From assembly GCA_030141605.1 (NCBI GenBank), contig JAQGDQ010000337.1:124001-188000 (forward strand): DNA of 64,000 bases, read 5' to 3'. Every line of letters begins with the position of its first letter. The stretch's first letter is position 1. Below, one piece after another: positions 20,603 through 54,752 of this stretch. Below the pieces are notes generated by a model that did not search any database, was not told the origin of the DNA, and worked only from the letters and a program-made list of their open reading frames with translations. The stretch comes from Tubiluchus corallicola. Its lineage: Eukaryota; Animalia; Priapulida. The translations under genes were made by a program, and so were the position numbers.

Positions 20603-22374
20603 TAACAGTTTTAAATAATTTGCTTAATTACCTATTGGTGCATTTTTCACTTTTTGCTAATTAAAAGATATGTATAGCAGTGCATTGCATTAAAATTAAA
20701 TGAGAAGTACATGTATTGCAATAATTTATATGGCATTATAAAAATTTAATGTAAAAGTGCAAAAGAAGTGGAAAAAACGTTTGGTTTAAGAGTTCAAGTG
20801 GTTCAAGAGTGGTAAGTTACAGTTTATTGCAGTATATTATACTATGTATAGGCAAAGATTTACATGTCACTGTTACTTGTTAGGGAGAGACTGTTAGCCT
20901 GCATATTGAACAGTAGTTGAAAAGTGCCTGGTATATGGGCTGTTTTTGTGAAACAATCGAATGCAGTTTTTTTCATTGTGCAACAAAATGCCCATTGTTT
21001 GCCTCACTTTTTGCACAATCTAACAATATCTGCCTGCACTGCATATATATGTTATTTAAATCTGTGGTACAGTGATATATGCATATATAAGAAATTTTTT
21101 ATGTACAGTACAAAATGTTTTCCTGTTCTTCTTCTAGCATCAGTTCTGCATTTCAAAAGCAGTGACGGTGTCATTTACTACTAATATTTATTTTGCTCTG
21201 TATAGTCTATTTGTTGGTCTGTTGGTACTTGACAAAAATATCACTGTACCTGTATAATGTATTTATTTCACTATTTTTAGTAACTTAAGATGAATTTTTC
21301 TATTTAAATTTAAGTACGTACATGTATTTTAGTTAACTTTAATAAATTTGTTTTGAATAAGCTATTTATTAATACACTTGTGTTACACTATAAAAGTACA
21401 ATAATCAATGCCAATGATGTCACAGTTATGATGTACAATTCATGGTGGTATTGTGTCATATGTGCTATTCATCATACATGTAATACAGAATATATGTACA
21501 TGAAATAATTTAACTGAGTGCTGTATTTAGTTAGTAAATAATAGTAGATCTCTCCTGTATAATACTCTACATAGTAAAAATTCAGTTTATATTTACAAGA
21601 ACTATAAGGTGTTGTCGTAGGAAGGAGATGAGAACTTGAAGATAATTTCTTGCAAGGTGGGAATGAACTAGACTGATGGAAGTAATCAAATGATTTTTCC
21701 CTCAAGTAAAGTTGGGAATGCAACTTGATTTAATTTTAATTTAAATGTACCAGCTAATCATCGTCATCGTTAATTATTATAATTCTTTTGACGTCACATG
21801 GGGATAGACTCGTTTCCTAAGAAAAGTTCTTTGTGTGTAAAATTTTTTGCCTGACAAAAAAAAATTCACGAAAAATTTTATCAGCAAAAATCTTTCCAAA
21901 CAAAAAAATTGTCATATCCGAAAATAAAATTCACAGAAAATATTGTTTTTAAAGTGCAGCTAAATATTATGCAATGAAAAGTAGTTTATTTTAACTTGTT
22001 AAGGCAAGAAGGTTTTTTTATCAATGTCTGAATGAATAATAGCGAATAATGTTGATACGCATGAGTGATCACGACATGTGTTTGGCAAAGCTGGACCTGG
22101 CGACTGATTTGTTGGGAGACAGTTTAATAGTCTCACTCTTGGGCAGGTTCTTTTACTTTGATTAAGAATTATTTCGTTCATTTCTTAGTGGTTAGAAAAC
22201 ATGTACATGCTTCCAAATGTGACTGTGGTATCTTTGTCAGTTTGGTATTTCATCTCAGAGAATTATCCTGCTAATGAACTAGGATCTGGTCCTGCCATAG
22301 AAGAATCAGTAAAAGATTTTGCTAAGCAGCATGATTTATTTCGCAAATTTAGACGTCAAGGTATATGTGATATA

Positions 22375-22572: not shown

Positions 22573-25500
22573 ACAGATCGAAACACCCGTTCGCCCAGAA
22601 ACGTGGCCAGCAATTATCTAACGCCGTGATTGTCATATTCCGTGGAAAAATTGCCCGACTTCTTCATCCACACCAGATTTTTTGAATTATTTTTTTACTG
22701 GAGTGAAAAAAGTGATAAATGGCATCATTTAGATGTGCACTATTCTACAAAACATGATTTTGCTAGTCTTTCTTGTGTCACATTGTAAGTCTGACATGCT
22801 TAGAATAATTCTACATCAGAAACTGGATACGTTAGTGGTGGAAGGTCATCAGATGGTGTGACATCACAATTATGTTACCAAAAAATGCCTTAAATCCATG
22901 GAGCTTTAATGTCGGTTTTTAACGTTCGTGCACGTTGGGACTTTTTAATAATTGTGTAAATTATGCAAATTCTGTGCAGATGTCATTTGCTGTACTAAGG
23001 AGCCCTAAAGCAATTTTGGGCAGCAGCAGCAGAACGGACACAAAGAACAGGACTGCCCGCAAAAAAGTGCAATATCTTTTCCTTGTAAAATTATGAATAA
23101 CAGACATTTGAAACTGTGGTAGTGAAAGAATTAGTTTGGTTTGTTGTGTTTAGTAACAGTTTGTACGCCATGTCAATGCAATTAACAGGTAATTTTAGAC
23201 ATTAAACACCACTAGATGAATTTAGCTTGTACTTTGTAATAAAATTGGAAAGGAATCTGTAACAAAATTGCTGAATGTATGAACGTTTACTTAATTAGTT
23301 AAAACTGTGATTGTTCAGGGTAATAACGATCACAAACAAATAATAACTTTCACAACCAAATTACATCAAGTGCACACAATATGCGATTACTTTTATATCT
23401 GACACAAGTTTTGCAATTTTCACATCCTGATTATGCCAAGTAATGAATGTAGAGCTATCATTATACTTTAGTGGAGACAGCACACCACTCTTTCTGTAAA
23501 ATGAGCTAATACTGCACATGTAAGTTCCTAAGGCTTAACTATTATTCTTTGATTATTTGTTTGTGGTCTTTACAAAATAGTAAATCACTTAGACACCTGC
23601 AGATCTTTCGGTGGGGGTAATTTGCAGAGGTAGCATAGTTTTTGAACATGTATTATGTTTAACTCTATTCCAAATTTTTGAATTTTATATTTTTTATTAT
23701 GTTTAACTCTATTCCAAATTTTTGAATTTTATATTTTTTATCAATATAAATTTGATGTCTATTTTGTGTTTAACTATGCTATAAAATTCTGAATGCAACT
23801 TAATATAAAAATTCAGTAAAAGTAAAACAAGAAAACATTCAGATATTGTTTAAACTCTGACTTTATTTGCCTAATGCAAAAGCTAATTTTCTGATCAAAT
23901 TTTGTCCACTGTTCAGTCAGAGTGGCACACAGACCTATAAACACACAGCATGACAGCACCCAAATCTGGCTTTTATAAGCTATATAGCTAGCTGCTTTAT
24001 GCTTGCAGCTGTGCCTAAAGCTCTATGTTAAACTATTTCCATGGACTTTTAGCCCCATAGTTAATATAATTGGTTAATAATACATAGCATAAACAAATCA
24101 CATTATAGGTATCCAATACGACATCTGTGACCAGCAAAGAATTTTGAAGGTCATTGTTATCAAACTACACGTGTAGTGAAAATCCTTTGGCCAAAATGCA
24201 TCCTTTACAGTTGAGGCTAATGGCTACTCAGCACTTTAAATGACAAACAAAAATCAGTTACTGAGCCACAGACTTGCATATCCAACAATACAGGAAACAA
24301 CGGTACAATAATTTAGTGCTCTGTGCAGCTGTAGTAACATGTTATTTAGACAGGATCTGAACTCCTGTGAAACAATGACTTTATAATCATGAATAGGTAA
24401 AATTTGCATGTTATGATCACACAACATCACATCTACACGGTTACAGCAAATAATAGTTACATTGTTAATATATCATCACTTAGTTTTAATTATAGACCTT
24501 CAGCAGACATGTACTGCACATGTCAAAGTATAGTTTTACTTACTGTAACTGTCTATTTTTTGTTACCCCAAAAAACCATCAGCACAGAGCACCAAAAGTG
24601 ATATGTGATGAATACAAGTTATCTAGAAAAGTTGTCAGCTTAAATTAGCACTGCATCACGCCAGAATCCAGCAGAAAATAACGACAACACAGACATACTT
24701 ATACAGCTGTGGAAATAGCACTATACCACAAATAATTTTACTGATTACCCACACCAACACAGGATCAAACTTTTCTACTGTTTAAAACACAAAAACGCAC
24801 TGTACTATTTGCAACCGTCCTGCACCCACAAGCGATGGGTTGAGAAGTAAAACAAGCACAATTCTTTCAAGATATTTTATGCGATTAGCTTCGCTTATTA
24901 GCTGTAAAGCACAAGCTCAAGCGAATAAGCAAAAATTGAATCGATTTATTCGCCTTTCCAGTACACGTATTGGCAGACGGTTTCAACGAGGACTGTTACG
25001 GTAAATTTGATTACAATTTCATTCTTATTTAGCACGGCTAGCTTATATACAAGACACAGATTTTCACAGTAGAATACAAAGAACTCACGTCTGTAAGAGG
25101 TTCAATGAAACTAGTTGAGTTTAATTGCTTGCAAATAATTCTGGATACAAAGATATAGAAGAATCGTACCATGACAGTAAAATCTGATCTTATAATCAAA
25201 GAAATGACACTGACATAAGCTAACCATGTTAAATAGCGTTCACAAAATATGAACGCATGCCAAATCTCAACGTGGTACATTGAATTCACTCGCTCGATAA
25301 ATTACTGGTGGCCACGTTAATTTTGCAATTTTAGTCCAGCTGCTGAACCAAAGCTTACGCAAGTCGCAACAAAAAGCAGGCCGTGCCTTAAAAATGTTCA
25401 TACAAAAATTATTTTAATACAGTCCAACATATACTTACAATTTCTACAGTCCTTTATACAGAAAACTACTCACGTTGAGCAAGTAAAAAACGTTCTCCAA

Positions 25501-28412
25501 AACGAAAATATCTTGAAAGACAATCAACAATAAACGCTCGCAATGTTGCTATCATAGGTGGCCGTATACTCTGATGAAAATAATTCTCGTTCCAAAGTTT
25601 TGTGATAACTAAAACGATTGCCGTTTTTCAAAAAACTCTCTGTCCACGGATAACAATGCATTCACAGAAAAAAAACCTATAGATACTGCTAGAATATTGA
25701 TTTTTGACACGACTTAAATATTTAACAATAAAATATCACATGAATCAATAAAAATGAGAATTTAAATGCCAGACATCGTTATAAAACTGGCATCGTCGAC
25801 ATGCTTATACAAGTTTCTTCTACGTTACAAAAAATTGATACATTGAATTATGACATACACACATGCACATGTAATTATTATATATATTATATACATAAGT
25901 GCAGTTTTACCGCAAAATGGACCGAGGATTATTTGCCAGTCCTTAAGTATTATAAACACTAGATACGATTATACTGACCATTAAAGACAACTACGAATGG
26001 GAAAGTCGTTCCAGCAATACTTGGTACAGTGACATAAAATGTGAGATATTCTATGACTTTACAATTCAAACGCATGTTTATACAATGCTGCAAAACATCA
26101 ACGAATTAGTTTTTAAACACTATTTACTCACTTCCAAGTAGCACTTAAGAATTGTGAAAAACAGATTCTCAATATATTGACTAGGTTACACACATAGAAG
26201 TGAAAAGTGACATTTTAATTGTGAAATGTTTTTTCGCTGCAGGTGACCAGTGCAATAAATATTGCAATTAAAAAGATCAGTGTTGTGTGAAAATGATAAA
26301 ATTGACTTAAGAAATGGAACGATAAAACCTGACATTTGAACGATGCATCCTATGAGAATCTCTGCAATCTTCACAGCAACAGAGAAAGAAATGATATATT
26401 GTACCAAGTTTTAAGAGAATATACAAAACAAGTAATCAGTGCTGAATAATTATGAAGTACATTAATAGTGATAATAATAAGTAAATTCTGCAGCAGAAAA
26501 CGTATTTGTACCATATACGATGCAATCCTAACACGCACGTACAACGTGTTACACAAGAACTATCTTGCACCGTAAAGATCTGCACTTTAAAAACCAAATT
26601 TACAATGTGCTCTACATTTAAAACTCAGTAAAATTTTAGCAAAATTATCAACATGTTAGAAATGACACATCAATTTACCCTAGCGCTTGGGTTCAACGCT
26701 ATTCAGCCCCTAACTGCCAACATGACTATTTATAGGCTCATGTAATGCAGCGATAAATGTCATATCAAACCCTATTAGACTTAGTTAAACTTATGTACTG
26801 TACATAAACACAACTTGTCAAATTTACACAACAATAATAAGAATCAGAACACAATTCACCTAAACTTTACTCATAGCATACAGCAAAGAAAAACATCGAA
26901 CCAGCAACGCAAACCAATCTATTGCCAAGCAAAATGTTTTTCTAAGATTTCTCATATTTCCTCATGCGATGAAATCATGAGACCATACCACAACAAGTGG
27001 TAACTTTCCAGCTTTCTGTAAGTTTGTAATGATTGACATTATGCAATCATTTTCATAACAATTAGAAAAACGAGTTGAATAGATTAATAAACAAAGTCTA
27101 AAGGTGTAACTTTCTACTACCTACACCTCATATCAGACTGAATGAACATATAGATCAAATGATAAAATATCTGCACGTATAAGAATTAATAAAACTTGCC
27201 AAATGTTTTAAACTTGTAATGTACTGCAGGTATTTCGCCAATATTTTGACTGCTTGCAGAAAGCTTTGAGTCATAAATTAAAAGGATTTCAATATCACCA
27301 CAATTAAGAAGAACTGTGCCCATTAAGTCTACTGAGAAAAATTTGCAAGGTTATAATTACAATTTTTCCAGGTTTGCCCAAATGTTTAACTTGTCGTTTA
27401 AACAAACTAGTCAGCCTGGGCAGTGAGTTCGTTTCCTGTGAAAGGATTTTTCCCACTCTAATGACTAATATTCCAGTCCATAATGACATTACGTTCCAAT
27501 AAATTCTACCCTATCCTCCGGCTTGTATAATTAAATTTTGCAAAGTCTTCCACCGCGCTTGCACGCATTCAGTCGTATGAAAACAGCTAATACAAAGTCC
27601 ATTGTAAATGCGACGACTACAGCAGTTCCCTGCGTCTTATAGACGTTACAGAAAAATGAATAGTACAAACGTTGCACCAGTCCAGTATTTACAAATTACG
27701 ATACAAAATGGGCGAATGTACAGCAGCTCTTTCTTTGTATCACTTACCAAAATATATGACAAGCTAAAGGCGAATACATAATAAAACCTTACCAGGTGTA
27801 CAAAACAGGTATACAGAAAGCACCGGTTAAACCGAATGCTACGTATGGCAGTAAAAACAACCCTATTTTAAACGAAAAATAAACTTTGGATAAAAAGTTT
27901 CACCGGTTTTTTTTTGTTTCCACACATATTTCCCGCCGCTGAATTACATCATCAGCAAAGTTGCTAAAAATCCGTAAACATACAAAAAGTTTGTACAACA
28001 TAGTTTAAAAACGACAGCTGATTTGATTGCAGTAAGACCGCAACTGCAGTTGAAATCTTTTAAACACCGGATGCTATAATGGACTAAATACCGGGGAGTC
28101 ACTGGCTAATATATTAACGTATTCTTATCACAGAATAGCACCAATGAAATCATATATTTATCCAGGAGCCTGCTGTGCTACTCCTGTCTGTAAATTCTTA
28201 CTACACTACATCTGTAGATGAAACGGATCTGAAATGGACCGCACCTCATCTACAAAATATATATTTATACATATTCAATGTTTTGTGTGCGTATGAGACA
28301 ACTTTGCACCTGTTTCTAAAATAATAAACAAACACTAATGTTTACACAGATTGTCTTATGCGGATGCTGGTAAAGGTGCTCGGAGTGACGTTAATGATGG
28401 CAACGACAATAC

Positions 28413-31400
28413 CTATATTCCTGCAGGCGGGCTGGAGCCGTTGGACACTGCGGAAGCGGCACTGGATGCCATGGCAGACAACACGCGTTGTCTGTCCGAA
28501 GGAGCTAGGATTCCAGCCAGCAGAGGAATGTGGTAATACTTGCACAGCGGTCGACTGCACTTGCCTTTGACGTAATCTCGACACACGGTAACTTTTCCAT
28601 CAGTTATTTCTACATAATCTGCAAAATTGTTTACATTTGGCAAATTAAATACTAATGCGATGCAATTAAGTTAAGCTGCACTGAGTTTGGACAGCAAACT
28701 AGATGGTCTGCCACTGAGAAGACTGATTCTCAGCTTAACACATCGATTCCCCGTTGCCTTTCCATTACCATCCTTCCTTTTTTTTATCTCTGACCTAATT
28801 GTGTTTTGTTTTTTTCCCTTTTTTTGAATGGCTTTGACAAAATGCAGCAGTATTGCCATGCCAAGTCTCTTCAGTCTAAACTGTGATTAGTAAATATTAT
28901 TAATATAACATTAATAAACTGCATTTATGCGCATTTTTCTCACAGATTCAGTGTAAGTTTATATTCAGTGTCATTATAAACAAATAAATAAACTTGAAAC
29001 TTCTGGGCAGTTTCACCTGCTACACAAGTATTCTCTTCAAGAGTACATGTGCACACACATGTGAACATGTGTCGGACGCTCCTGCCAGTTCAGTATCTCA
29101 TGTTAGAGAAACACTCTTAATAATGAGCAACAATAATCATAAAGAAACACAAAGAATCATTTGTTAGAATATCGTGGATAGACTGAAAGTGTCACAGTGA
29201 AGATGAACTTTGTTATCAGTTTTATCAACTATCAATTAGCATTGAATTAAACAAAGAAGAATAAAAGTAAAATATTTACTGTACCTTCAACTACATGTAC
29301 GTATTTGCACTGGGGCCGCTTACAGTTGCCCGTCTTAAAATCTCGGCACACTAGGAGGGTGTCCAGCAACTGAAGAACGAATTAAATTATTCATTAATAA
29401 CATTAAACGAGTTATCTTTTCAGATGAATGTTCACTAGATGTCTGCAGCTTAATCACCAACAGTTACAAAGGGTAATCAGAAGTTTTTGGCCACGCCCTG
29501 AATTAAAGAAGATACATGGTAGTAGTAGTAGGACACAAAGTGCATTCGTTACAATTCAAAAAATACTCATCAGTGCAAGACGTTTCTGCAGTGTTACATC
29601 ATTCAAAAGCCAATCAGCCAATATGGCACTTATGAGTCATACGATAGTTGTAACTTTTTGTAAAATATGATTTTGCAAAAATCGTTTGATCAACGTTTTG
29701 AAAGCCAAAATTGCTAAATTATTTTATAGAACATCAGTTTATTATACACTGCTGGCAGGACCGGCTCTAGGTAGTTTGACGTCATAAGCAAAAGTATTTT
29801 AGCGCCCCCTCCTGAATGGACAACCTCTTCCCCATAGTCCATTTCAGAACCCCCAATATTGCATTTTTCTTGTACAATATTATAAGAAAGTATAATGGTA
29901 CTGGTGTATTAGAATTATGCATGTATTATAGTGCACTAATTAAGTGTAGTTAATTACCTATCTACAGTTTGTGTTGACTGAATTTGAAACAGAATTTATG
30001 ACTGATCGAATTTGAAACTGAATTTATGACTCCACTGTTTTCTATGTAAGTCGCCAGCTTTTTTATCATTCGTTTCCTGTATTCCATCTTGAAGGCTTCA
30101 ATTCTTATTTGCTTCATCTGACATAATTAAATGAATGCCATTGCAAGAAATTTTTTTCTTAACAGAATGGTTATTCTGTAAAAAGTTATATAGAAACAGT
30201 GGGCAGGAGGATGGTCATGTGTCTGTAAGGTCTGCATGAAATGACGTAATCTTAGGAAACAAGATAAAACAAAATTAGAAGCAAATTAGTTGTTTTATAT
30301 AAAAGTAAAAACAGAAAGTGTTTTGCCACGCATGCAGACACTTGCTGGCGTCGATGAATCATACATTTGAAAGGAAAATAACGCAACTTGTTTGTTTCAT
30401 TTAATTAGTGTTATGCACTTAAGGAATTATGCATAAACTATGTTATTACTTGTACTAAACTTAAAAATGAAAGAACTAGTACTAGAATTTGGGATGCGTA
30501 GATTGCCTAGTTACAGAGCCGGCCCTGGCTACTGCTTTTTAAGCTTATTAACAAACCTCAGAAATAGCACATATTTCTGAGGTCTTCAGAGCTGAAGGTT
30601 AGAGACAGTTGTAGATTCTTGGCTTCAGTTGAAATAAATTATCTTCAGACGTAGACAAATTGCAAACAGAATTTCCTTATTGTCGAGAAATTAGAATTCC
30701 TCTTTTATGTATTGGCTTCAAATACAGTTCAAGCAGAAATAACTAGGTCAATTTCTACAGAGATAGGTTAGTTAGTATTATAGTACGATATTTTTCTTCA
30801 CGCAAGATAAAAATTTTGGTTGCAAAATGTCTACGTCTATAGAAGATTTATTTCTACACACCTGAAGCCAAAGATTTACAACAGAGACTTCTGATCAGCC
30901 ATGGTAACCAGATGTTTCAGATGTACAGAGTAAATCAAATAATGCAATTATGTATAAAAGCAACAACACAAGATGGCGCTTGAACTGCACAAGATTCCAA
31001 GCTTAGCCGTTACTTAATCAGCATGTACTACTAATTAAAATTCACCGAGACCAAGAAATGAAGAGCTAAAAGTTATGAATATGTTACAGTGTTTTTTTGT
31101 CGTTTAGTTAGGCCTGCACCACAGCCCACAAGCTTTCAGCATAACATGAACTGAGAAAAATCAGCAAAACAAAAAAACAGCCAACAACCGAAATTAGTAA
31201 AATACCTGGTTTGACTCATCAAAGTAATTAACACTAGCAGCGTTAGTAACTACGGGAATGCTCGTCACAGATGGCATCAGAGGCACTTCATGTTTCCATG
31301 ACAACGAGGCGTGCACATCCAATAGCAATACAGCGCCAGCAACAGCAGCGGAAAGGAGTAGTGTGCATGCAGTGTGTAATTGTGTGCAGTGTGAATTAAG

Positions 31401-34400
31401 CAGTTGGAGAAATGGTCAAGCATGAAACGAAACAGAAAGAAGTTAGGAAATGACCAATAAGTGTCCAAAAAGCTGAAATTGAACAGTTTAAATAGACAAC
31501 AGCAGCTTTGAAATGCTGAAGATTTTTTTACAAAATGACTCATATCTGATGCCTCGTTTTTGTGACTTCTTCTAATAACATCACTGAATGGAATAGAATG
31601 TGTAAGTTATTAACATTTTGTCAGAAAATTTGGTAGACACGAATATAAAATGAGAAAATATGCACAAAGAGTTTTGCTACAATTCCGAAATGAAGATCTT
31701 TCTGCAGTAATATATATATTATTTGAAAAAATAATTTTACTATTTTAAAATTCAATTCCAGCTATAATGGTCACCATTAAAAATTATGATTTCCAGTCAC
31801 AAATGTTAATACTTCCTTTATAACAGTAAGAACAAAGAGCTGTCAAATGTATAAACAATACTAAAAATTGTAAACAGTTTTGAAAAGTATTAAAACACTC
31901 GAATACACTAAAGTTATATTATTTAGTAAGAATCGTGAAAAACCCGGAGCAGAGCTTGAATCTTGGTAAATCGTCCTACGGGTTTCTGGGAATTCAGATC
32001 TACAAAAATTTCTGGCTCCTTGCCCTGACTCTCTACCCTAGTCAAAGGGTAGCACACAGGTGCCAAATAATTTTAAAATGTGGCTACATGAGAGGACCCA
32101 TGGTGTGAGCCACTCCACATTTTCAATGATTTGTCAATACTTCACCATTTTACATGATAAAAAAGACTAGTTTCACTATGTGAGAAAGCTGCAGTATGAC
32201 TCAGTCAGTAGTGTCATGCACCATCAAAGCCATATTTTCGTTTATCCATTTAAACTCCATTTTATAGACGAATGAGTTTTTCTTAGTCAGCTTTTACGAC
32301 AGTAGCAGTAATCATGACTGAGCCTTGGTGCTTCTAAACTCGACAAAATTGCGAATTTTGTGAAAGTTTTTTTGATTAGCAATGATGACTGAACTCGTGA
32401 GTAAGAATAGCATGAGTGCAGTCATGACAGGGCAGTGAGGAACAAGCCTTGGATGCTTACCTATCTAAGTTTGTGTAGCAGAATGCACTAGAGTAGTGGA
32501 ACAACAGTGCCCAAAATTACTCAAATGCACAAATACTCAGCCACCATTTTGTTCGAGTGATGCACCATATGATTTCTCTTGGTTTTCCTTTGTTTCACTA
32601 AAAGCTTATTTTTCAAAGCGAGAAAAAACTGGAATAACTCATCCTTTTTGACTGTTTCCTGGCCATTTTTTGCAAAATGCATAAATTTGTTGTGTAGAGA
32701 ACAATAGGAGCTCGCTAAAAGATTGAAAGTAGTTCAAAAACACACTCTGCAGTGGATGTCGTTGATATAGGTTCCGTGGGAAGCCCTGGGTCTCGTGCAG
32801 GTCTTATTTTACTTCGTTCCCAGTTTCGTGGGGCCTTGCTAATTATATACATGTATTAACAGTCAGACATGTTAATGAAACTGAATTTAGAAACCAAAAC
32901 TTGAACGGAAATTTTTGAGACGTCGGAAACTGATACCGTAACAAAATTAAACCTAAATTGTTTTAGAAACAAGTAATGTACTTTCTTTTTTTTCTCGTTT
33001 GCTTCATTTGCTCTGATACAAACTTGATGACATAGCTAATCGACAAAAATTCGTATTGCATAACAGTGGAACTAGGACTAGAACCACGAAATTCAACAGC
33101 AACTACAACTTGGCACTGACTGCTTAAAAAATTAACTAATTTTATTTTGTATGAATTTGGTTGCCTATATTTCATAAATTCTGAAATTAAACTTGGCTTT
33201 GTTCAAATCACGCATTAATATTTCAGTTGACTGTGCCTGGAGACCCTAAAGCTTCACAGTCATTGGCACGGAAGATATACTGCGTCGCCGTAAGAAACTG
33301 ACTTTCGGTTTTACTTGAAATGAAATTTTCGATTCATTTGAGCTATTTTAGTTAATATATTTACCTTTTTTAACATCTAAGAAAAAGGTAAGCTAGACAA
33401 ATCATTTAAAATCGAAAATTACAAAGTTTCGGTTACGGCGAAAACAAAACTGAACAGAAAAGAAAATTATCGGCAAATGGAAATGAAAGTCATTTTCGGT
33501 TACAACTCTGACAACATTTTCACAACAAAATTAATTGCCAATACAAGCCATCCGTGTAGTTTAGTTGCTTTTTCTAGATTTACCCTGATTTACAGATTCG
33601 CTGTTACAAATGTCTCTCATTAGTATTTAGTCAGTTTTGTTAACGACTATAGGGTGCTGACTACTGACACACCGACAGCCTCTTGCAGCTCCTCAAAAAT
33701 GACGAACATGACTGGGACTTCAACTTTTTATGCTAACTTTTGAGGACAAGAATAGTCAAATGTTGTCAGACAACTTTCCCCGGTGTCATTAGCATCTAAA
33801 TTTCAACTTTCCCCGGTGTCATTAGTATCTAAATTTCAACTTTCCCCGGTGTCATTAGCATCTAAATTTCGACTTTCCCCGGTGTCATTAGCATCTAAAT
33901 TTCAACTTTCCCCGGTGTCATTAGTATCTAAATTTCGACTTTCCCCGGTGTCATTAGTATCTAAATTTCGACTTTCCCCGGTGTCATTAGCATCTAAATT
34001 TCAACTTTCCCCGGTGTCATTAGTATCTAAATTTCAACTTTCCCCGGTGTCATTAGCATCTAAATTTCGACTTTCCCCGGTGTCATTAGTATCTAAATTT
34101 CGACTTTCCCCGGTGTCATTAGTATCTAAATTTCAACTTTCCCCGGTGTCATTAGTATCTAAATTTCAACTTTCCCCGGTGTCATTAGCATCTAAATTTC
34201 AACTTTCCCCGGTGTCATTAGTATCTAAATTTCAACTTTCCCCGGTGTCATTAGCATCTAAATTTCGACTTTCCCCGGTGTCATTAGTATCTAAATTTCG
34301 ACTTTCCCCGGTGTCATTAGTATCTAAATTTCAACTTTCCCCGGTGTCATTAGTATCTAAATTTCAACTTTCCCCGGTGTCATTAGTATCTAAATTTCAA

Positions 34401-37400
34401 CTTTCCCCGGTGTCATTAGTATCTAAATTTCTACTTTCCCCGGTGTCATTAGTATCTAAATTTCGACTTTCCCCGGTGTCATTAGTATCTAAATTTCGAC
34501 TTTCCCCGGTGTCATTAGTATCTAAATTTCGACTTTCCCCGGTGTCATTAGTATCTAAATTTCGACTTTCCCCGGTGTCATTAGTATCTAAATTTCAACT
34601 TTCCCCAGTGTCATTAGTATCTAAATTTCGACTTTCCCCGGTGTCATTAGTATCTAAATTTCGACTTTCCCCGGTGTCATTAGTATCTAAATTTCAACTT
34701 TCCCCGGTGTGATTAGTATCTAAATTTCAACTTTCCCCGGTGTCATTAGTATCTATATTTCAACTTTCCCCGGTGTCATTAGTATCTAAATTTCAACTTT
34801 CCCCGGTGTCATTAGTATGTGACATCTAAATTTGTGCGATTGCTCAACGCTTTCTATTTGGTCGAGGAAAAGACACAATTATGCCAGATTTCTAGAGCGA
34901 CAAATTTGGTGACAATTTTGAACTTTTCATTGATAACTGGGCTAATTTTATTTGAACTCTAATAACATTAGTGTGTCAACATAACACTCTCCGAGTGCAA
35001 TAATATCCGTCATGCTCTTTCTTAAAGGAAAGGCCAAGCCGTCTAGGAGGTTAGGATTTTATTTCAATGTAATTCAGTAATTCAGTAATAAAACTGCAAT
35101 AAGTAACTAGCAAAATCACTTTAAAGTCGTGATGACTTCACGTTTGGGCGCTCCCATTTTCAATGCCCATTCTTCTTCCAATGACGTAATTCGTCTTGAA
35201 AAAAAGTAACGCACTGCCAATTTTCATCAAAAGTATAAGTTTTTACAAAAAATAGATAATGTAATATTTTTGTGTTAAGATTAGGTAAATTGCAGAAGTT
35301 TGAATTAGTTTGAGCAGCGCGTGCTTATGGAAAGCCACGAAGTGCTTACGACAAGTCGTGAAGTCTCCATGCAGTTATGTCATTATGTTCAAGTGAATGG
35401 CGGCAACCACTAAGTCAGAAAATTCCTATTCAAAGGTAGTGGTATTTTAAATTTATGCTTTATAGGCAGTACTTGAGGCAAATTTGAGTGACTTGTTCTT
35501 TCCTTTAAAATGATACATTTCCTTTAAAACTACAATTTATGCCTTAAGAAAAACTATAATAGTCGGCTTATAGAGACGATGCCAGTGTTACTTACAGGAA
35601 ACTGGGATGTACGGCTGCGGCAACTGCATCGAGGTTATTGCTTGCTGATATGTAGCTCCTGGTTGATAGACTGGCACCCCACTTTTTTCCATGGCAGGCC
35701 TTTTCGTCGCATACTGCACTACTGGGAAAGCAGCAGCCTGCTTTAATAACAGAAATAAATACTTTAATCACGGAAGTCGAAATCAACAACGCAAATTTTC
35801 CTACAAAACTAGATTTTACAGAGTCAATGACTTCTAAGATGTAAAAATGAAATTAAATGGAAAATTATTATGACAATAAAATTTCCGAGTTTATTTTGTG
35901 GGATTAAACTGAAGCATTTAGAATTAAAAAAATAACTAAAATTTAAAGATTTAAAAAGTTTATAAAATCATCTACTAGAAATGAAGAGGAATCCTTGATC
36001 TTTGCTAAACGCAGGAGAGCACAGATATAATAAAAGGGCGGATTTGCACCATTATCATTAAACAAAAACTCTAGGAAATCTAAACTCTTTAAAAGAGTGG
36101 ACAAGTGATCCTTTAATAAGCAAGTCTAATTAAAAAAATTAAAGGCAGACCTGGAAAAAATAAAAAAATGAAACTTAAAAATGCAGTTAAATCAACTCTT
36201 CATCCTGATATTTTATGATAAATGCAAAGCCTGATATTAGCAGTTAATATACAGCACAGAAATAGAAATGTTCCCAAAACATAGCTGCTAATATACAGCA
36301 TAAAAATAGAAATGTTCCCAAAACATAGCTGCTAATATACAGCATGGAAATAGAAATGTTCCCAAAACATAGCTGCTAATATACAGCATAAAAATAGAAA
36401 TGTTCCCAAAACATAGCTGCTAATATACAGCATGGAAATAGAAATGTTCCGAAAACATAGCTGCTAATATACAGCATGGAAATGTTCCCAAAACAAAGTC
36501 CAAAACACAATTTAACATTAATGAATTTAAAACGTGATTAGAGAATAACGATGAAACGATGGGTACCATTTCTAAAGCAGAGTGGAAATTACAAATGGAA
36601 AGCACTCGTAAGCAGAACTATTTACAAGCAACTACTGATTGACGACATAACATTACACCATTTTAACTTTAGATCTCTGGCCAAATAACACTTACAAATA
36701 TTAATTAGTCATTCCTCGCTAACTTTTTGTAGTTTCTAAAATATGTGTAGATTATTTCATAAGAATAAAACGTTAAGATTTCTGGTGCTAACTATAGTAA
36801 CGAAAACAGCATAGAGAGGTATCACTATGACTGCTAAGCGGTCTGATTTAATCTGCTTCCGCGAGGTTAGCAAAACTTTCAGTTAATAAGTTGCAAAGCA
36901 AAATAAAGTCGACTTGAAATAAATAATACAAACAAGGTGTGCAGTACAAGCACCGACCAGAAGCAGAGTGACCATCAGACCACGAAGCAAGAAGAACCCA
37001 TGCAAAAGCACTTTAGGGAAAGTAGTACCAGTATAATGTCGTCGGTGGCATCGTGCGGACGTTTCTTCGCCCCGCTGAGTACGGCGGCAGCAGTGGTGGT
37101 GTCCAGTTGTGTTGGCTAATTAGTATGCAGTACAGCAGCCATGAGCAGGGCACACAGTTGCAAGCAGCAATGCATTGTGGGAGATGAAACAAAACAAAGC
37201 ACAATTGAAACCATGCACATTGTCAAAAATGAATGACAATCCAAGAACAAAAACCACTGTTACCAGTAGAGGTGCCCAAAGCGTATTTCCAGCATATTTT
37301 AGCAAGCCTTTCAAATACTTGTTACTGTTGCGTGCACTATGACAACCTGCCTGGACGGGCCAAGCTACAACACTTAGTCAGCCATTTGCAATTAGGCAAA

Positions 37401-40400
37401 AAAAATTCAGTAATGTATTAGTTACCTTTCTAACCGAAGCTAGAAATAAATGTCACAACAATGAAAACAGATATACATTATTATCAAAAATTGAAATAAA
37501 TGCGATAATTGTCAATTCTGGCCAACATGAGGCAGCACAGGCAAGGTTGTCATGACAGCAGAGCGAGTGTAAACGTGCACTGCTAGCAATCTAGTCAGTT
37601 TACTTCTAGTCTACATAGGGAAAAGCGTATGTGCATAAAAAATTCCACATGATTTTGATTCACTAACGTGGTTTAGTTTAAAACGTAAACAATTGTTTAA
37701 AAATCATAAAAATAAACAGGTCTGCCTAAGTTTTTTCGAACATAAATCACAGATTAATTTCAAAAAAAAGGGAAAAGATTGTTGAATGAAAGGCACAAAA
37801 ATATGTTGAAAACTAGCTCTTGGCATTTCAAGACTGAAGTAAGAATTTTAGTCTATTACAGATTAAAATATCAAAACTGTAATTACTTTTCAACATACAC
37901 ACGTGGCAGCAAAATTACGCAAAACTTAAGATAATGCTTGTGCTATATATGTGTATCTTCAACTGATATTACTTTGAGCTGCTGCTAATACATAATGTCG
38001 AGTTTTTGTTAATATAATGCTAAATAATGATTTAATATTAATTATGACCACTGGTACAATTGCAGTCACTGTCTGTGTGACTTACTAAATAAATGTACCT
38101 TAAAAATAGCTACTAAGACATCTTTATTTCAGTTGAAAGAAAAATAATGACGTTCAGTTTTTATTTATAAACAATTTTAACTGTTTTTGACTTAATCCCA
38201 CTTAAATTAAATGTCCAAAATTGATTTCAAACAGGATGTAGTTATTGTCACAATGGTGGTGTATGTTTACTATTTTTATTTTTCTATTTTATTTTATTTT
38301 AGTGCCGTTTTTTATTTTCTAAAACAACTACATTTTGGACCAAGCTAGACTCATTGTTAGTGGATAACAATGTACAGTAAAGAGCCAGTATGATCACCTA
38401 AAGAAACAATGTACCTGTGAATAGAATCATGCAAAATAAATGTGTTAAGTGCATTGGTAATAGAAACCATGTTGACATTACCCAAATAATAATAACTATT
38501 AAGAAGGTGTAAGTGAATGGTAAACACTGTAATAGCGTATCTGATTAGTTTTCTGTTGAAAGTACAGCTTGTACATACATAAGGTAATCATGTGCCGTAC
38601 GTCCATATGTGAATACTGTATAAGCTTGTTTGATTGAGACAATTGTTTTGCATTTTAATTTTGTTTCACAGCTGCAATCATATGGCTGCGATTGTTGCAA
38701 AAACTAGTGAGTTCATTATAAATAATTCCAAAACAAAAACAACGTGAGTAGAAGTATCAGCAATGTTTCAAAATAGACGATCACGGACACTATTGTGAAA
38801 AGAAACATTGTTCATTTATTATTCATAAAACATTCATAATTTTAAGGTTACTATTAATGATGTTGTTTTAGTGACACTCACAGTGTTTTCATTTTTAATG
38901 ACACATTGGCATTGGAAAAAAAACCTTGTTTGACAATCACCATTTCAAAAGGAAGGCTAATCATTTATAATGATTTTATTTATTTAGGTTATCTTACCTA
39001 TAATGTTTCAAAGAGACATTGAAATTAATACATTAGTTTCATCTTTACTCTAAAATAAGAGCTAGAAAAGCAATCAAATAAGCCTTTTCACAGTTTCGTT
39101 TTTCGCACTAGCAGTTGCCGTACATCAAAGGTTAAGCGTACCACAGCAACGTGTCTTAACTACAACCATCACGTGACATGTGTAAAGCAAAGCCGTCTGC
39201 TGCACGAATTCAGTAACGTCAGTTGTTTTACGTTCACTTTACTTAAGTATGCATTAGTCTGTGCAAAGGGTAATTTACTAGCAGGAACTTGCTTAGAAAC
39301 AAAGAAAAAATGAACTAGGTAAGGTTCTAGCTAGGTAAGGTGTTGTCTGGTAGACTTAACTTTCGACCTATTCACGATCATCATCAATCACTGGAACTGT
39401 GTGAAAAAGCTTATTGGGACAAGACAAAAATGGTTGTATAAATCTTAGGCTGCTGATAGTTTAGATTTATGATTATGTAAAGACAACCAAATTGCAGATG
39501 TATTCAATTTTCTTTATAATAATTAATGAAATCCTTTATTCTGAAAAAAAGACTGATTATTTCTCCAATAAGTTCATCTGCTGTAGAATAAGTTTTTGAC
39601 TAAATCAGTAAGGAGAGTATGATGCTGCTTAGTAAATTTCGTATTCACATTTTGTATATTTTATATTTGCATCAGATCCACGAAAAAGCATTGATCAATG
39701 CTAGAATGGGGAGGCAAAGAAAGAATGCAGTAATTAATATAACAAGCTGAAATTTAAAATGTAAGACCACAAAGCCATAATGCGCAGTGCATAAGCAGCC
39801 ATGTTTAGCTGAATCTGACAGCAACAAAGCATTCTGAAACTCAAGATTGTCTCTAGAGGCAGAAATATATAAGCAGCATAACAGCGGGTAGAAGAGATAA
39901 AGGTAGACGAATAATGAAGGCAGAAGAGGAAAAGTTAACGGTGATTTAAATAACTACTTGATGTCCTATTAAATGAGAAGTGCCTCCTACCATAGCAGCA
40001 GCAGCATTAGCTCGGCTTTGGTTTGCCTTTAATTGCGCTTGCAGGTGTTGCGGTGGATGAAAGTAGCGGCACTGCTCTCTAGTGCATCGTCCCTTCACAT
40101 GGTCCATACAAACAGTAACCATGCCATCTGTCGAGTCCACCGTCACATGCTCAGGAGGGTGAGCAAAGCGACATTCAGTCTCCAGCCGCTTGCAATTGCC
40201 CCGCTGAAACTCCCGACATACCTATAAGCAAACATAAGCAACAAGCCGTACAAGCGACAGTATTTGCTAAAACAAACTGAGAAGCTGCCAAGCTGAAGCA
40301 CTTGCTCCTACTGCCTGTGTGCCAGAGCAATCAGCCAAACTTAGCTATAGCTTAATATTACTACTTAGTGAGTTAAAGCGCACTTTGCTGGGAAGTGATG

Positions 40401-43400
40401 AAAAACCATGTTGACAGCCAGTGGTGTTCCTCAAGGTGATGTACTGGGGCCACTTCTTTTCAGGTTGTACATTAAATTATTAATGCAAATTTTCAAAAGT
40501 GTCGCATTTTGCTAAAGGCAGTATAAACTTAGCATAGAAGAGTGACAGAAAATAATAAGCTGTCAAATGGACAAAGAGCAACAATTCAATAGCATTCATG
40601 CTTCCTATGCAATTACTAGGATATCATAATGAGTTACATAGGTATTTGACCGCTTGAGCGTTTCAAGACTACTTACCACTGGCACCATGATGTCAACTTA
40701 AGCAGTTTAAAGAAGTGGTGGATAAGGAATTAAGGCAGTCAGTAGGCTAGTGCTTCCGCAGGTAACAGCACACTGTAGTGTACATAATGAAGTTTGGTAC
40801 TACCAATATCAAATGGCAATTAGTGCTTAACAGAAAAAAATTATGCGAGTAATTGACTGTTTTATTAATTTAAATGTTGCTTTTTTAATTTGCTTTTATG
40901 AGTTTCATACTGTAGTAGTTTGTCGCAATATCAGCCTCTTTTGCAACTAAATTTTACCTTAATGTAAGATGGCTTATTAATGTATATAATGACTTACACA
41001 AAAATGTAATGTAGTGGATTAATAATTTCATACGTACAGTAATTTTAAATTAGAATAATGAATTATACTATGGCTTTGGAAATTTCAAGTATATTTTTAT
41101 AATTTCTTTGTTAAAGATATTTGCGATTTTTTTTCACTGTAATAGATTAATTTTTGATGATGTTAGAGCCAACCAAAGTAATATAAAGACAACAACTGCT
41201 TTCGAAACCTATAAATATTTCGAGTGAAAGTATATAAAATATGTAGAATATTGGTTATACACGTGAATGTGTTTAATGTGCTTTGTTTAACAATATGCAT
41301 ACGTATTTTGTGATGATTTTTTATTGTCAATGAAACGTATAAACCTTCTTAGATTTTTATACTGTCATAAAAAGTAATGATAAGTTTTCGAATAAAGAAA
41401 TGCTAGTCATACCTCTAACCGGTCTGTTCGAGCTGGTTTCTGCTGTGCAATCATCTGAGGTGACACCACTCCATATGGTGACGCCACTGTAGCCGCATCG
41501 GCTGGGACTAGTCCTTGCATGAGCATTGTGGGATTATTGTACGGATTAAGAGGTTGTACAGTTGGAATTGTAGTTACGTATGGAGGGTTGCCACCCTGAA
41601 AGACAATGAAGAAATGTTATTAGAGTTTAAACACAAAGGAGAAGCATGTTTAAAGATAGCTTCTTTTCAGGATATAGATAAGATTTTTATATTAACGTTG
41701 GTATCATGTTAGTGATGTGTTTGTTAATTTCTTTTGATATTTTAATTGCGTAAGATCAATTGAATTCGATTTCAATTAATTTTTATTGCACAAATAAAAT
41801 AATGTACCGTGGCAAAAATGTACGTAAATCTCTTCGTGTGTTTATTTTAAGTAGTTATGATTCAGTGCACCCCCTATTCAGTCTAACAATTGTAAAATTA
41901 TTTCCCTCCATCCCTGAGTGTCACTGTCATTTATGGCACAAGCTGATCATGTACAAGCCGTCTGGGTAAAAAATTTCACGCTAAAATGACATTTTGACTG
42001 CCACGGCATCAAACGCCAAACATTCATTCGTGCCATTGATAGGCAGCATAGCAAAGATCTTTTATTGTGTGAGTTACCATGTTTCGAAATTACGTTTCAT
42101 CCAAATGATGTTCTATTGACGAGTTAGACAAATCAATATTTGCTTCAAATTGACTAGATATAACAAAAACCAATTTAGCGGTGCCCGCACATACACACAA
42201 AAGGCAGATGTAATCTGTATAGAACCAGGAGGTCAAGAAGTTGCAAGACAAATTTCTAACACTGCACGATCTTACAGATCACAAACTTAAAAAAATGAAC
42301 TAGTCAGTCCATTTAAATTCAAGTTTCTATGGCTCAAGTAACATTTACAGACAGGTAGTGCATGCAATTTGCCATCTACCGGCCGCACAGTAAATAACTT
42401 ACACATAGACGGCTTTGCTTTACCCACACCTAACGTAACGGTTGTAGTTAGACACACCTAACATTTGACCTACAGCAACTGCGCGTGCGCACAGCGAAAT
42501 TGTGAAAGGGCTTATTATTAGTCCAAAAGCCGACTTTAGAATAACAAGTCTTATTATTACCCGTGAAACTGGTCGATCTCTGTATATACCATAATGTCCA
42601 AGCATGAATTTATGTAAACATGGGTGGAATTTCAATTTCGTATTAGCTACATGGTGCAGCCATTATTGCGAATTTTTGTATTGCAAATTTTTCCGTGACT
42701 CTGTCTAGACATGTGATTATTATGAACAGTAAGCCAGTAATCAGGGGCGTGTCTTACGAAACAGTGTGAAGGGTGGGGTAGACTGGTTAAGTGCAATCTT
42801 AAAAAAATGAGATTGTCACAAAGTCCCTTCTAGATCTCCTAATTGTGCTAAGACAAAGCAAAGTTTTTTGTGGACATAAGTTTCCGCGAGTCTTGTTTCA
42901 ATCTAGGGGGCGTGCTACAGCTGAATTTTATCTGCCCCTCGTTTTTTTAATTTTGGTTTCGCCCGCGCCGGTAATTATACTTAATCCACACGATTTCAAA
43001 TTTCAGACGCAAGCAGTTAGCACTACAGTCAGAAAGACAGCTGCAGAAAGATTTCATTTTTTACTCGTTTTAAAACCTTCAAGGTTGAAATATGTAAAGA
43101 ATGTCAAGAGAGGCAACCATGTTTACATAATCACGGCTGCTGTGTGAGATTTTAAACAAAACGCGCTGTTGCGCGAGATCTCTAATATAAAACACGATTA
43201 AATAAAACGCGTAAAACTAAAACACATCCGGCGGTAACAATAGAATTTTGACGCGTAAATTATCGCAATAAAACCACACGCAAAGTTGTAAAATTGGCGT
43301 CTTCCTGGGGGAAACGTCCCCAGATGAAAAACTAGTTTATGAAAAAAACGACTAAAATTTAGTCTGGAACCTAAAAAGCGTTAAAGCCAAGAGTTAACTT

Positions 43401-52400: not shown

Positions 52401-54218
52401 ATGTATATAGTTAAGTTGTTAAACAGACTACAGCAGATTGTGAGTTCGAGTTCCAGCTGGTGCCCACAAATTTTTCGCTAATTTTTTAAACGTCGACTAC
52501 TGAAAAACTGTTTCAAAACTGCTTCAAGTGTAAAAGAAGAAGCGTTAAAAACGGTTTCTGTCTATTGTAACTGCAGACAGTATGCGGGAAGTTAATAGAA
52601 GTCTGTATTTGTCGGCGGAAATGTTCGTCTAAAACCTGTTTTCGTTCAGTGACATTCGCAGCAACTTTGAGAAAATAAATGGCAGCAGCAACAATTCGAT
52701 AAATTGTGAAATCGATGCAGAAAGAAGAAGTTAGCAAACCGGCTGCTGCGTTGCCCTAGCAACCGTCTAGACAGTTAAAAATGTTTAATCACAATAAAGG
52801 TACTTTAACAGTGCTCAGCGATGGTAACAGATAGCAGCAAAATCAAACTAGAAGCCAATTAAATAATGGCTAACAGTCAGAGAGACGCCTACCGGTCATA
52901 AGCAAAACTACAAACATTTTAGATGAAATGCGAGCAGATAAATACAATTGCAAACAGTAAGATGATGTCTAGCGGCACACACGACTTAGAACATTAGTTC
53001 AACTGCTTACGAACGACTGATATGTACCTTTTTACAATATCCTGCAACAAGGAACACGTAAACGAGCAGCTTGTATCAAAAAGACGAGAATAAACAAATT
53101 TACATGTAACGCTTTTGGCATAACTACTGCCAGTATCATCATCATTAATGATATGCTGCCATCATTACTATATCGTCTTCGTCGTCGTCGTCATTACCGT
53201 CACCGTCATCATCATCATCACTAACACCATCATCATCATAGTCATCATCACTATCACCATCATCATCGTCACCATCACCAACACCATCATCATCATTGTC
53301 ATCACCAACATCATCATCGTTACCATCGTGATCATCATCATCATCATGATTATCATCAACACTAACACCATCGCTGCCGCTACCAACACCGTAATCCACC
53401 ACACTCAATATCAGTTTGCTGATAATCGGTACTATGTCGTTGTCGTCATTTTCATGTTGTCAATCTGTTTAGTTATTATGGTTGTCATTGTTTTACCAAA
53501 ATCACCAAAATTTTTCGAATTACTTTGATGCAAAGGATACAAAGTTTTCCAAGGATGCAAATCTCACTGACGTTACCACATGCGGTTCAAAAACACCATA
53601 ACCACCACCACAACCACCATCATCATCATTATCATATGCCGATTACGTCTATTGTAAAATAGCGTATCGACATTAGCAGGCAAAATTCTAAAATAAACGA
53701 AATTTGCCCTCAAGACACGTAAACATAGCAGCAATCCAGCAAGAAACTAAACACTGCTATACCAGTGGCATGTCAGCACCACCTCCGCTCCCAAAACGCC
53801 ATAAGAGGAGGACCAGTTTCCCACAGTTGTTTTTATAACTATGTATATTGAAAGTCCACCATCTTTGTGTGCTGGATATTAATAGTCGAAATGTTTACTA
53901 GTACGGCTTGCAGTAGTACAGTGTTTTTAACACAATTTTACCTCCAGCAATTTTTTTTTGCTAAACATGAATAAACGTCCTACTTCCTACTTCTTAAGCA
54001 CGTTAAAAACTTGATAAAACTTTTAGAAGATTTGCAAAAGAAGCCATACTCACCACAGCAGGTATTTGACCAGGAATTACTTGCTGAAACGGCACTTGGT
54101 TCATCAGGGCGGCTTGTTTTAGCGCTAAATTATTCCTACCATTAATTAAAAGCTGATCTTTTAAATGCTGCGGTGGATGGAGATACTTGCATGGTGGCTT
54201 GTCACGATTACATCTACC
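28413..54218 (-). CDS. MBNL: Muscleblind-like CCCH zinc-finger splicing regulator, 5'-partial (ZF1 exon not found, presumably beyond 64000); longest isoform carries three tandem zinc-finger pairs
   Basis: Exons: 54218-54054 ([31 protein letters not shown]..., end of ZF2); 47573-47508 (tentative); 41595-41413 (...[10 protein letters not shown]); 40221-39991 ([21 protein letters not shown]...[30 protein letters not shown]3-4); 37115-37029 (...KKRPHD...); 35737-35596 ([16 protein letters not shown]...YIPVS); 31285-31206 (80-nt cassette); 29369-29285 (ZF5 or [11 protein letters not shown]); 28618-28413 (ZF6, stop). All GT-AG with compatible phases. Confidence 0.92.
29285..29369 (-). CDS. MBNL: MBNL dual-frame exon (85 nt)
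   Basis: Phase-1 entry gives [11 protein letters not shown] (TAA at 29337-29335). Phase-0 entry gives [28 protein letters not shown] (C-x7-C-x4-C-x3-H). Acceptor ttcttcag, donor AAG|gtacag. Confidence 0.88.
29756..30527. mobile_element. hAT-like MITE in MBNL intron
   Basis: TIRs CAGGACCGGCTCT...AGAGCCGGCCCTG. The flanking 8-mers ACTGCTGG/GCTACTGC match at 5/8 (possibly a decayed TSD). Partial second copy at 17260. Confidence 0.65.
30608..30882. repeat. Foldback (long imperfect inverted repeat), probably a MITE
   Basis: GTTGTAGATTCTTGGCTTCAG pairs with CTGAAGCCAAAGATTTACAAC, and the nested AGACGTAGACAAATTGCAA pairs with TTGCAAAATGTCTACGTCT. Confidence 0.6.
31206..31285 (-). CDS. MBNL: MBNL 80-nt frame-shifting cassette exon ([27 protein letters not shown])
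   Basis: Acceptor catgaag|TG, donor AACCAG|gtatt. Length 3n+2 converts the phase-1 end of the 142-nt exon into the phase-0 start of ZF5, with no stops. Confidence 0.75.
33771..34818. repeat. 33-bp minisatellite, ~32 near-identical copies, in an MBNL intron
   Basis: Unit CAACTTTCCCCGGTGTCATTAGTATCTAAATTT with two recurrent variants (GTA/GCA, CAA/CGA). It explains the 309-aa repetitive ORF. Confidence 0.97.
36241..36495. repeat. 44-bp minisatellite, ~5.5 copies
   Basis: TAATATACAGC recurs at 36245, 36289, 36333, 36377, 36421 and 36465. Confidence 0.9.
37029..37115 (-). CDS. MBNL: MBNL 87-nt in-frame cassette exon with basic KKRP motif
   Basis: tactaattag|CCA ACA CAA...ATA CTG|gtacta encodes [29 protein letters not shown], phase 0-0, flanked by dense YGCY motifs. 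Confidence 0.75.
40420..40476 (+). mobile_element. Non-LTR retrotransposon reverse-transcriptase fragment
   Basis: Translates [19 protein letters not shown], matching the conserved GVPQGSVLGPLLF motif of LINE RTs. The flanks are decayed. Confidence 0.75.
43720..44620. repeat. Old degenerate tandem triplication containing an internal ~79-bp duplication
   Basis: ACTAAGTCACGTTTAAGACCGTGG-like motif at ~43724, ~44208 and ~44548. ACTTAAACGTGGTG.GACAGTAAGTACTTGTGGTGTATA occurs twice (~44321, ~44400). Confidence 0.55.
44860..45395. repeat. C/A-rich low-complexity degenerate repeat
   Basis: Mostly CAC/ACA/CCA with recurring ACCAAGCACTT..TGCACAACACACC and CACCTCCCACATCATA blocks. It explains the His/Thr/Pro-rich ORFs. 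Confidence 0.85.
45430..45547. repeat. Perfect 32-bp inverted repeat around an (AT)n spacer
   Basis: 45430-45461 ATAATTAAAATTGAATCTTATAATTAATTTTG is the exact reverse complement of 45516-45547. Confidence 0.9.
47508..47573 (-). CDS. MBNL: Tentative MBNL 66-nt linker exon ([22 protein letters not shown])
   Basis: Long U-rich tract ending tttgtttag, donor GTG|gttggt, phase 0-0, open frame. No recognisable conserved motif. Confidence 0.5.
47678..47775 (+). mobile_element. SINE-like remnant with a tRNA-like A box and a 5S rRNA-like segment
   Basis: TAGCTGAGTGACTAAGGCG followed by AAGTTAAGCAACACCAAGGCTGG...GATGGATGACCACC, which resembles the 5S internal control region AAGCTAAGCA...GGATGGGAGACCGCC. 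Confidence 0.4.
50175..50267. other. 93-nt hairpin with 36-bp arms (3 differences)
   Basis: CGTGTTCTTCGCTCTCTTACAAATTTCATCCATGGG ... CCCATGGAGGAAATTTGTAAGAGAGTGAAAAACACG. Confidence 0.8.
51881..52126 (-). mobile_element. LINE (CR1/L2-like) ORF2 C-terminal remnant, between two ~90-bp direct repeats
   Basis: [40 protein letters not shown] resembles the Y.TR...G..lWN.L tail of CR1/L2 ORF2. CAAATTTGTAAAATAGCCCC...GACATTGATTGTA occurs at ~51790 and ~52306. Confidence 0.55.
53135..53400. repeat. Degenerate (CAT/CAC/CGT)n trinucleotide microsatellite
   Basis: Imperfect CAT-dominated triplets that give the poly-D/I/M ORFs. Confidence 0.9.
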
Positions 54219-54501: not shown

Positions 54502-54752
54502 ACAGAGATCTTATTCAGTACATGGGTGTAGTGACAGAAAGGGTTGTGGGAACAGAGATCTTATACAGTACATGGGTGTAGTGACAGAAAGGGGTGTGGG
54601 AATAGAGATCTTATTCAGTACATGGGTGTAGTGACAGAAAGGGTTGTGGGAACAGAGATCTTATTCAGTACATTGCTGTAGAGACGGAAAAGGGTGTGGG
54701 AACAGAGATCTTATTCAGTACATGGGTGTAGAGACAGAAAGGGGTGTGGGAA
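54502..54752. repeat. 50-bp minisatellite, 5 copies
   Basis: ACAGAGATCTTATTCAGTACATGGGTGTAGTGACAGAAAGGGTTGTGGGA with period 50. Confidence 0.93.

Follow-up and report, generated by a model that had tools for sequence, protein, structure and literature searches.

A muscleblind gene with a probable frame-shifting cassette

The window, i.e., the whole 64,000-nucleotide stretch analyzed here, contains most of a muscleblind (MBNL) gene on its minus strand. Through a six-frame scan and sequence reading we identified eight coding exons (a–h, all minus strand), each with an AG acceptor and, for exons a–g, a GT donor. Exon a (54054..54218) encodes the second half of finger 2, i.e., the end of the first tandem CCCH pair (TZF1), and matches the same exon of orthologs, while the start of TZF1 and the first coding exon lie outside the window. 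Exon b (41413..41595) encodes a linker ending in RTDRLE and is covered by a contig of X2, an RNA-like run described below. Exon c (39991..40221) carries a complete TZF2 (fingers 3 and 4), which is 92% identical to scorpion TZF2 and grouped with the TZF2 of other animals in a tree where the muscleblind fingers of the window lie nearest to arachnid rows. Exon d (37029..37115) is an in-frame exon of 87 nt with a first KR motif (KKRP), located behind a 141-nt AG-free zone. Exon e (35596..35737) carries a second KR motif (TKRP), ends with YIPVS in phase 1, and has the donor gtaagt, which is common to both splice forms. A double KR motif, found in this gene on the adjacent exons d and e, is defined as a nuclear localisation signal in the available text of PMC10773944, and exon d would be the counterpart of the KR-motif alternative exon described there.

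The remaining three exons form the region of interest. Exon f (31206..31285) is a frame-shifting cassette of 80 nt (3n+2) that ends in NYFDESNQ, with acceptor aag and donor gtattt. Exon g (29285..29369; 85 nt, cag acceptor, gtacag donor) is dual-frame, with finger 5 in frame A and a 10-residue peptide in frame B. The coding part of the last exon, exon h (28413..28618), provides finger 6 and a tail in the long form and is 3′ UTR in the short form. The coordinates and translations of the initial annotation of this locus proved right on the minus strand, and the finger pair that it named is the third of the gene, with the end of TZF1 at 54218–54054 and TZF2 at 40221–39991. Rfam yielded no match across 25000–42000 of the window. 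Tandem arrays are present in the introns at 33771–34818 (period 33, 31.8 copies), 59300–60091 (period 45, 17.8 copies), 36238–36483 (period 44, 5.6 copies), and 54502–54752 (period 50, 5.0 copies).

An observed and a predicted splice form read exon g in different frames

When the cassette is skipped (joint 35596>29369), exon g reads 11 residues and reaches a TAA stop at 29337–29335. When it is included (e-f-g-h), translation continues through two 19-residue segments and KYYHIP to a TAG stop at 28415–28413. This long form has finger 5 in exon g and finger 6 in exon h, i.e., a complete third CCCH pair (TZF3).

X2, a single RNA-like run from a relative (29 differing letters over 530 in the key contig), was taken as spliced RNA because its joints have GT-AG ends. 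One X2 contig includes both 35596>29369 and 29285>28618 with such ends; hence the skipped form exists, and the intron between the finger exons g and h is spliced out even where it lies within the 3′ UTR of the short form. Among the junctions proposed by the initial annotation, the skipping joint was thus recovered, while the inclusion joints 35596>31285 and 31206>29369 were not found in X2 contigs, which cannot prove absence. No X2 contig covers exon f at either 90% or 80% likeness, and exon c is likewise uncovered in X2. Since contigs cannot show absence, we infer the inclusion of exon f in the window's organism from orthologs. The end of the cassette peptide, NYFDESNQ, resembles the NYFDQNGQ and NYFDSNQQ of orthologs, which also stand just before finger 5.

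Other routes can be drawn on the same exons. Splicing the cassette straight to exon h (31206>28618) would end in NQIM-stop, comparable to the IMLK or IILK ending of lamprey, tunicate, and MBNL2 forms, and splicing exon e straight to exon h (35596>28618) is in frame and leads to finger 6 alone, as annotated in lamprey records P0161 and P0167. Downstream, 26000–27821 contains conserved blocks with deep contig cover in the X2 relative, marking a 3′ UTR that is at least 2.4 kb long and in which some elements are conserved. One X2 contig at 41440–41596 contains the exon a–b junction twice, rejoining within exon b off splice sites, which is likely a library or assembly artefact and not a circular RNA.

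The third pair is a predicted CCCH module

Both halves of TZF3 passed the Pfam zf-CCCH_10 cut-off, and all eight zinc ligands are intact in the window. Comparison of TZF3 to MBNL1 and MBNL2 structures yielded E-values of 3e-13 to 6e-11 (6 sequences), with matches to the MBNL TZF structures PDB 3d2q, 3d2s, 5u6l, and 2e5s and a fold predicted to be alike. The spacing of finger 5 is C-x7-C-x4-C-x3-H, whereas fingers 1 and 3 have x6 (available text of PMC11837677). Modeling of the third pair alone, from a shallow alignment of 12 rows, reached a pLDDT of 45. For the spider ortholog P0001 (21 sequences), AlphaFold2 yielded a pLDDT of 90–95 over residues 441–510, which correspond to TZF3, with the same strand-helix pattern as in TZF1 and TZF2; the TZF3 of the window is 83% identical to that of P0001. 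By homology, TZF3 would bind RNA and offers a natural, predicted RNA-binding module with a different Cys spacing.

Foldseek matches of the full-length model at 57–72% identity were discarded as support for TZF3 because they reflect TZF1 and TZF2, and the ESM Atlas returned only zf-CCCH_10 and related clusters, below 0.9. Separately, P0010, a spider record of 120 residues with a toxin name, carries PF22628 and was matched by the exon-h peptide (81% over 93%); by sequence, it looks like a misnamed fragment of a muscleblind third pair.

Both frames of exon g are constrained

A scan of metagenome contigs with the frame-A protein as query yielded 3 loci among 379 pattern matches. All three are spliced short-form transcripts ending in GHPP[SG][VM]PRF-stop, with TZF3 intact in the other frame, and the three loci and the window are 67–76% identical downstream. 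Across these four sequences (pairwise counts being non-independent, and one inserted L003 codon dropped for register), synonymous differences at same-residue codon pairs were strongly suppressed where the two frames overlap: 8/57 in codons 2–11, compared to 133/228 in codons 13–61. Similarly, 7 of 9 columns were invariant in the overlap vs 4 of 32 downstream (Fisher p = 4e-4). Ten-codon controls near splice sites showed no such suppression (30/48 before the exon g donor, 25/47 after the exon h acceptor), so that the low synonymous change is not accounted for by proximity to a splice site. The initial annotation had suggested that both frames look constrained and had proposed a suppression test on the overlap, whose outcome agrees with that suggestion. 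As far as sequence comparison goes, both frames of exon g are open and constrained, and exon g offers a clear example of an exon that selection has maintained in two frames across phyla, with only a slim chance left to an RNA element as the cause.

One position differs in the window itself: at 29354–29352, two codons ahead of the first Cys of finger 5, the window has Leu where most orthologs have Pro, a change that is silent in frame B.

A long AG-free zone precedes the cassette

Upstream of exon f, a 187-nt AG-free zone (31287..31473, minus strand) includes 8 YGCY motifs; at 31448 it also has a branch-point-like TCCTAAC, after which pyrimidines follow. This zone is the longest of 3280 AG-to-AG gaps on this strand, and the fourth longest (141) precedes exon d. 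By length alone 0.19 such runs would be expected in the window, and the weight of this one thus comes from its position; as many YGCY motifs occur in 1.9% of same-size windows. Part of the region (31370–31489) is conserved in the X2 relative. The AAG acceptor of exon f has no adjacent pyrimidine tract, an oddity attributable to 31287–31286 being the first AG past the distant branch-point-like site. We set aside an alternative acceptor at 31473, since its use leads to a stop, and read this position as the edge of the AG-free zone.

This layout, i.e., a long AG-free zone, a distant putative branch point, and YGCY motifs, resembles that of the human MBNL1 95-nt exon, for which the available text of Corvelo et al. 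(PMC2991248) gives an AG-free zone of 224 nt, with the branch point mapped to -229; the same text reports a mapped distant branch point and a zone of 173 nt for the MBNL1 54-nt exon. By analogy, exon f may be controlled through its distant branch point and autoregulated by MBNL at its own YGCY sites, and the choice of form may be tissue-specific as in flies. Elsewhere on the strand, the second-longest AG-free run (20658–20843, 185 nt) is pyrimidine-rich, with no exon identified behind it.

Alternative readings of the switch

The muscleblind gene has, in the reading we favor, three tandem CCCH pairs, and the 80-nt cassette probably decides whether the third is made. Skipping would let exon g provide a short conserved tail ending in PRF-stop, while inclusion would shift the frame such that finger 5 starts from the same bases of exon g and is followed by finger 6, encoded in the last exon. 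This reading builds on the exon anatomy, the two open frames, the skipped transcript of a relative, the two-frame constraint, and the existence of both protein forms elsewhere. It is unlikely that the switch is real but that frame B provides only an early stop (truncation or mRNA decay), with a functionless peptide and with third positions fixed by an RNA element, e.g., a splicing enhancer. The frame-B stop does lie 50 nt ahead of the last junction, all four DNA sequences share the first 12 bases that follow codon 1, and no function for the PRF tail was found in the literature searched. Among the synonymous encodings of the window's frame A, 28% yield a stop at that codon anyway, yet merely 768 of 663,552 (0.12%) yield the frame-B motif. 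Several of the changes that do occur among the sequences moreover leave frame B as it is: Arg is unaffected by CGA→CGC, the stop is retained with either AAG or AAA, and where frame A of the window has changed from Pro to Leu, frame B still has Pro. Short-form transcripts are also the form found in X2 and at 3/3 metagenome loci, and the fly MBL-C protein is abundant on westerns (available text of PMC9352392).

A still less probable reading, to which we give very little weight, is that exon 31285–31206 is unused in the window's organism and that the third pair is either silent or reached by another exon or splice site. It would account for the missing inclusion joint in X2, the atypical acceptor of exon f, and the Leu that stands, ahead of the first finger-5 Cys, where Pro is usual. 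However, the cassette has the right length modulo 3, a good donor, and a peptide that ends as in orthologs; the eight zinc ligands downstream are intact; and the AG-free zone makes 31287–31286 the first AG after the branch-point-like site.

The third pair across animals

A search with the exon-h peptide yielded 11 matches among 48 candidates, and one with the spider third-pair region 175 among 399, with arachnids, a sea spider, insects, bivalves, gastropods, a bryozoan, hemichordates, and lampreys among the 120 matches listed. From 257 collected proteins (one record left out), mostly database gene models and not direct reads, 185 had the finger-5 motif, including 87 with six fingers. The short tail was detected in 44, picked by the pattern G[HQ]xxxxxRF, which itself fixes G, H/Q, R, and F; a conserved short tail was found only in protostome-type records. 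All 11 long forms that could be parsed, out of 12 tried, had a cassette of 20–38 residues ending in Q ahead of finger 5. Long and short forms were both available from one species for Mytilus edulis and for the tephritid Eurosta solidaginis, and 5/5 long/short pairs tested could be encoded by one DNA in two frames.

In a tree of single pairs (16 rows, one protein skipped), TZF3 formed one group (100/99). It was again a single clade (99/96) in a 15-row tree that takes in the coral Stylophora, the sponges Sycon and Oscarella, two echinoderms, and a tunicate-like record, although these trees rest on 63 columns and the long branch of Sycon makes the sponge placement the least secure. On this phylogenetic evidence, the third pair is ancestral to animals and older than protostomes. 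The initial annotation had described an old binary splicing switch that adds or removes an RNA-binding module through overlapping reading frames. Both forms in orthologs, the suppressed synonymous change, and the fly case discussed below bear this out; as for age, the switch is old as proposed, while the module, present in corals and sponges, predates protostomes.

Several variations were observed around this pair. In a comparison of records P0069, P0171, P0263, P0302, and P0308, Saccoglossus apparently has two versions of the finger-6 exon, both present in a row in one model, and echinoderms use the second version; the two are possibly duplicated, mutually exclusive exons. Small frame-preserving exons between exons e and g occur in the short form of other animals (L001, just before 1501; P0243–P0249; P0252–P0257), with one set carrying a 14-residue unit twice. 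Finally, five divergent, unnamed MBNL records (P0320, P0354, P0336, P0356, and P0402) have drifted short tails (GLQRF, GLPRL), and these sequences suggest that the short tail persists in fast-evolving lineages.

Relation to the known switch in flies

The splice switch itself is already published for Drosophila, and the gene in the window is its counterpart. There, mbl-C excludes exon AE3, whose inclusion shifts the frame and leads to a larger protein with two more zinc fingers (Pamudurti 2022, PMC9352392, available text). The same text reports both the mbl-C and mbl-O/P proteins on westerns and a split of mbl forms between photoreceptors and neurons or muscle. The fly switch and that of the window share a short protein upon skipping, a frame change with two added fingers upon inclusion, and a common last exon. 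In the window these two outcomes of inclusion follow from translation, and both forms exist in the tephritid Eurosta, from whose isoforms we would equate fly AE3 with exon f.

The two systems have nonetheless been described differently. The available text of PMC9352392 counts two pairs in MBL-O/P and does not treat the added pair as a third paralogous module or discuss its conservation, whereas the exons for TZF1, TZF2, and TZF3 are all in one gene here and six-finger isoforms are annotated in many animals. Likewise, Drosophila MblF is reported to have a weakly conserved second pair, C-terminal, distinct from the true TZF2 and 32% identical to human TZF2 (Irion 2012, PMC3315501, available text). 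What is handled there as a poorly conserved second pair falls within a conserved third clade in our tree, and tephritid TZF3 is 38% identical to jawed-vertebrate TZF2, compared to 62% for tephritid TZF2. A 2026 review (PMC13044900, available text) assigns one finger pair to invertebrates and two to vertebrates. No third MBNL pair was found in the literature searched, which comprised mostly papers free of subscription, without figures and supplements, nor does one appear in the available text of PMC13044900, PMC11837677, PMC10773944, PMC5041496, PMC2238819, PMC9084524, PMC4176163, or PMC6357765. Within that literature, the third-pair clade, the probable MBNL2 fossil finger described below, and the YGCY-rich AG-free zone ahead of the cassette are unreported. 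What the present gene adds is evolutionary: a third pair that spans the animals, constraint on both frames throughout protostomes, a shared layout with a distant branch point, and a probable finger remnant in MBNL2.

Fate of the third pair in vertebrates

Lamprey isoforms continue from SSANQ either into the third pair (SADTLTICRDF) or into IMLK-stop. The latter ending corresponds to exon-h codons entered in phase 0 (4/384 encodings), and this lamprey form therefore represents a direct splice from the cassette to exon h; the same ending occurs in the tunicate Phallusia. Among 49 records with jawed-vertebrate-type motifs, none had a third pair. The view of the initial annotation that vertebrates have no downstream fingers consequently applies to jawed vertebrates only, since lampreys have a whole third pair after the exon ending in ANQ, and it likely needs a further qualification for MBNL2, which appears to retain a decayed finger 6.

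Two protein records bear on this remnant. In the fish Scleropages, MBNL2 with the cassette ends in ANQ followed by IILK, which is the phase-0 reading of the same codons, while MBNL2 without it has a 41-residue tail. From its first residue, this tail aligns without gaps to lamprey exon h (finger 6), with 11/32 identical residues and a profile score of 29.1 against a shuffle mean of -31.4 (0/20,000 shuffles as high). For the snake Pituophis, the MBNL2 tail had 8/32 identical residues (1/20,000 shuffles as high). In both species, the exon-h register was the best one outside intact fingers, and the tails end in AC like that of lamprey. Based on these two records, the last exon of MBNL2 is likely a decayed finger 6, and exon g was likely lost in jawed vertebrates, which would thus have lost finger 5 while keeping the cassette and the decayed finger-6 exon. 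The human MBNL exon 8 cassette ends in ANQ, as does that of lamprey, and when this 95-nt exon is skipped in MBNL1 and MBNL2, translation of the last exon ends at a different stop (Tables 1-2 of PMC13044900). In MBNL2 it is skipping of the cassette that leads into the finger-6-like frame, opposite to the arrangement in protostomes.

Taken together, these patterns point to a likely scenario in which the common ancestor of animals possessed a Muscleblind with three RNA-binding finger pairs and splicing decided whether the third was made. Protostomes would gate it through the dual-frame exon, and lampreys, tunicates, echinoderms, hemichordates, corals, and sponges would have kept the pair, while jawed vertebrates would have lost finger 5 but kept exon 8 and its distant branch point, the exon-8-skipped C-terminus of MBNL2 being a translated ruin of finger 6. 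Splicing regulation depends centrally on MBNL proteins, which are also the key factors sequestered in myotonic dystrophy. If this scenario is true, the C-terminal isoform switch of human MBNL genes would be what is left of an ancient switch that turned a whole domain on or off, and the history of the third pair would explain where the alternative C-termini of MBNL1 and MBNL2, which are poorly understood, come from. A conserved third pair also alters the reading of fly and other invertebrate models, in that the two fingers added in MBL-O/P probably do not correspond to human fingers 3–4. For MBNL1, the skipped tail is identical to the lamprey finger-5 lead at 5/10 positions vs 2/10 for exon h, a lead suggesting that this tail may derive from exon g through an acceptor shift.
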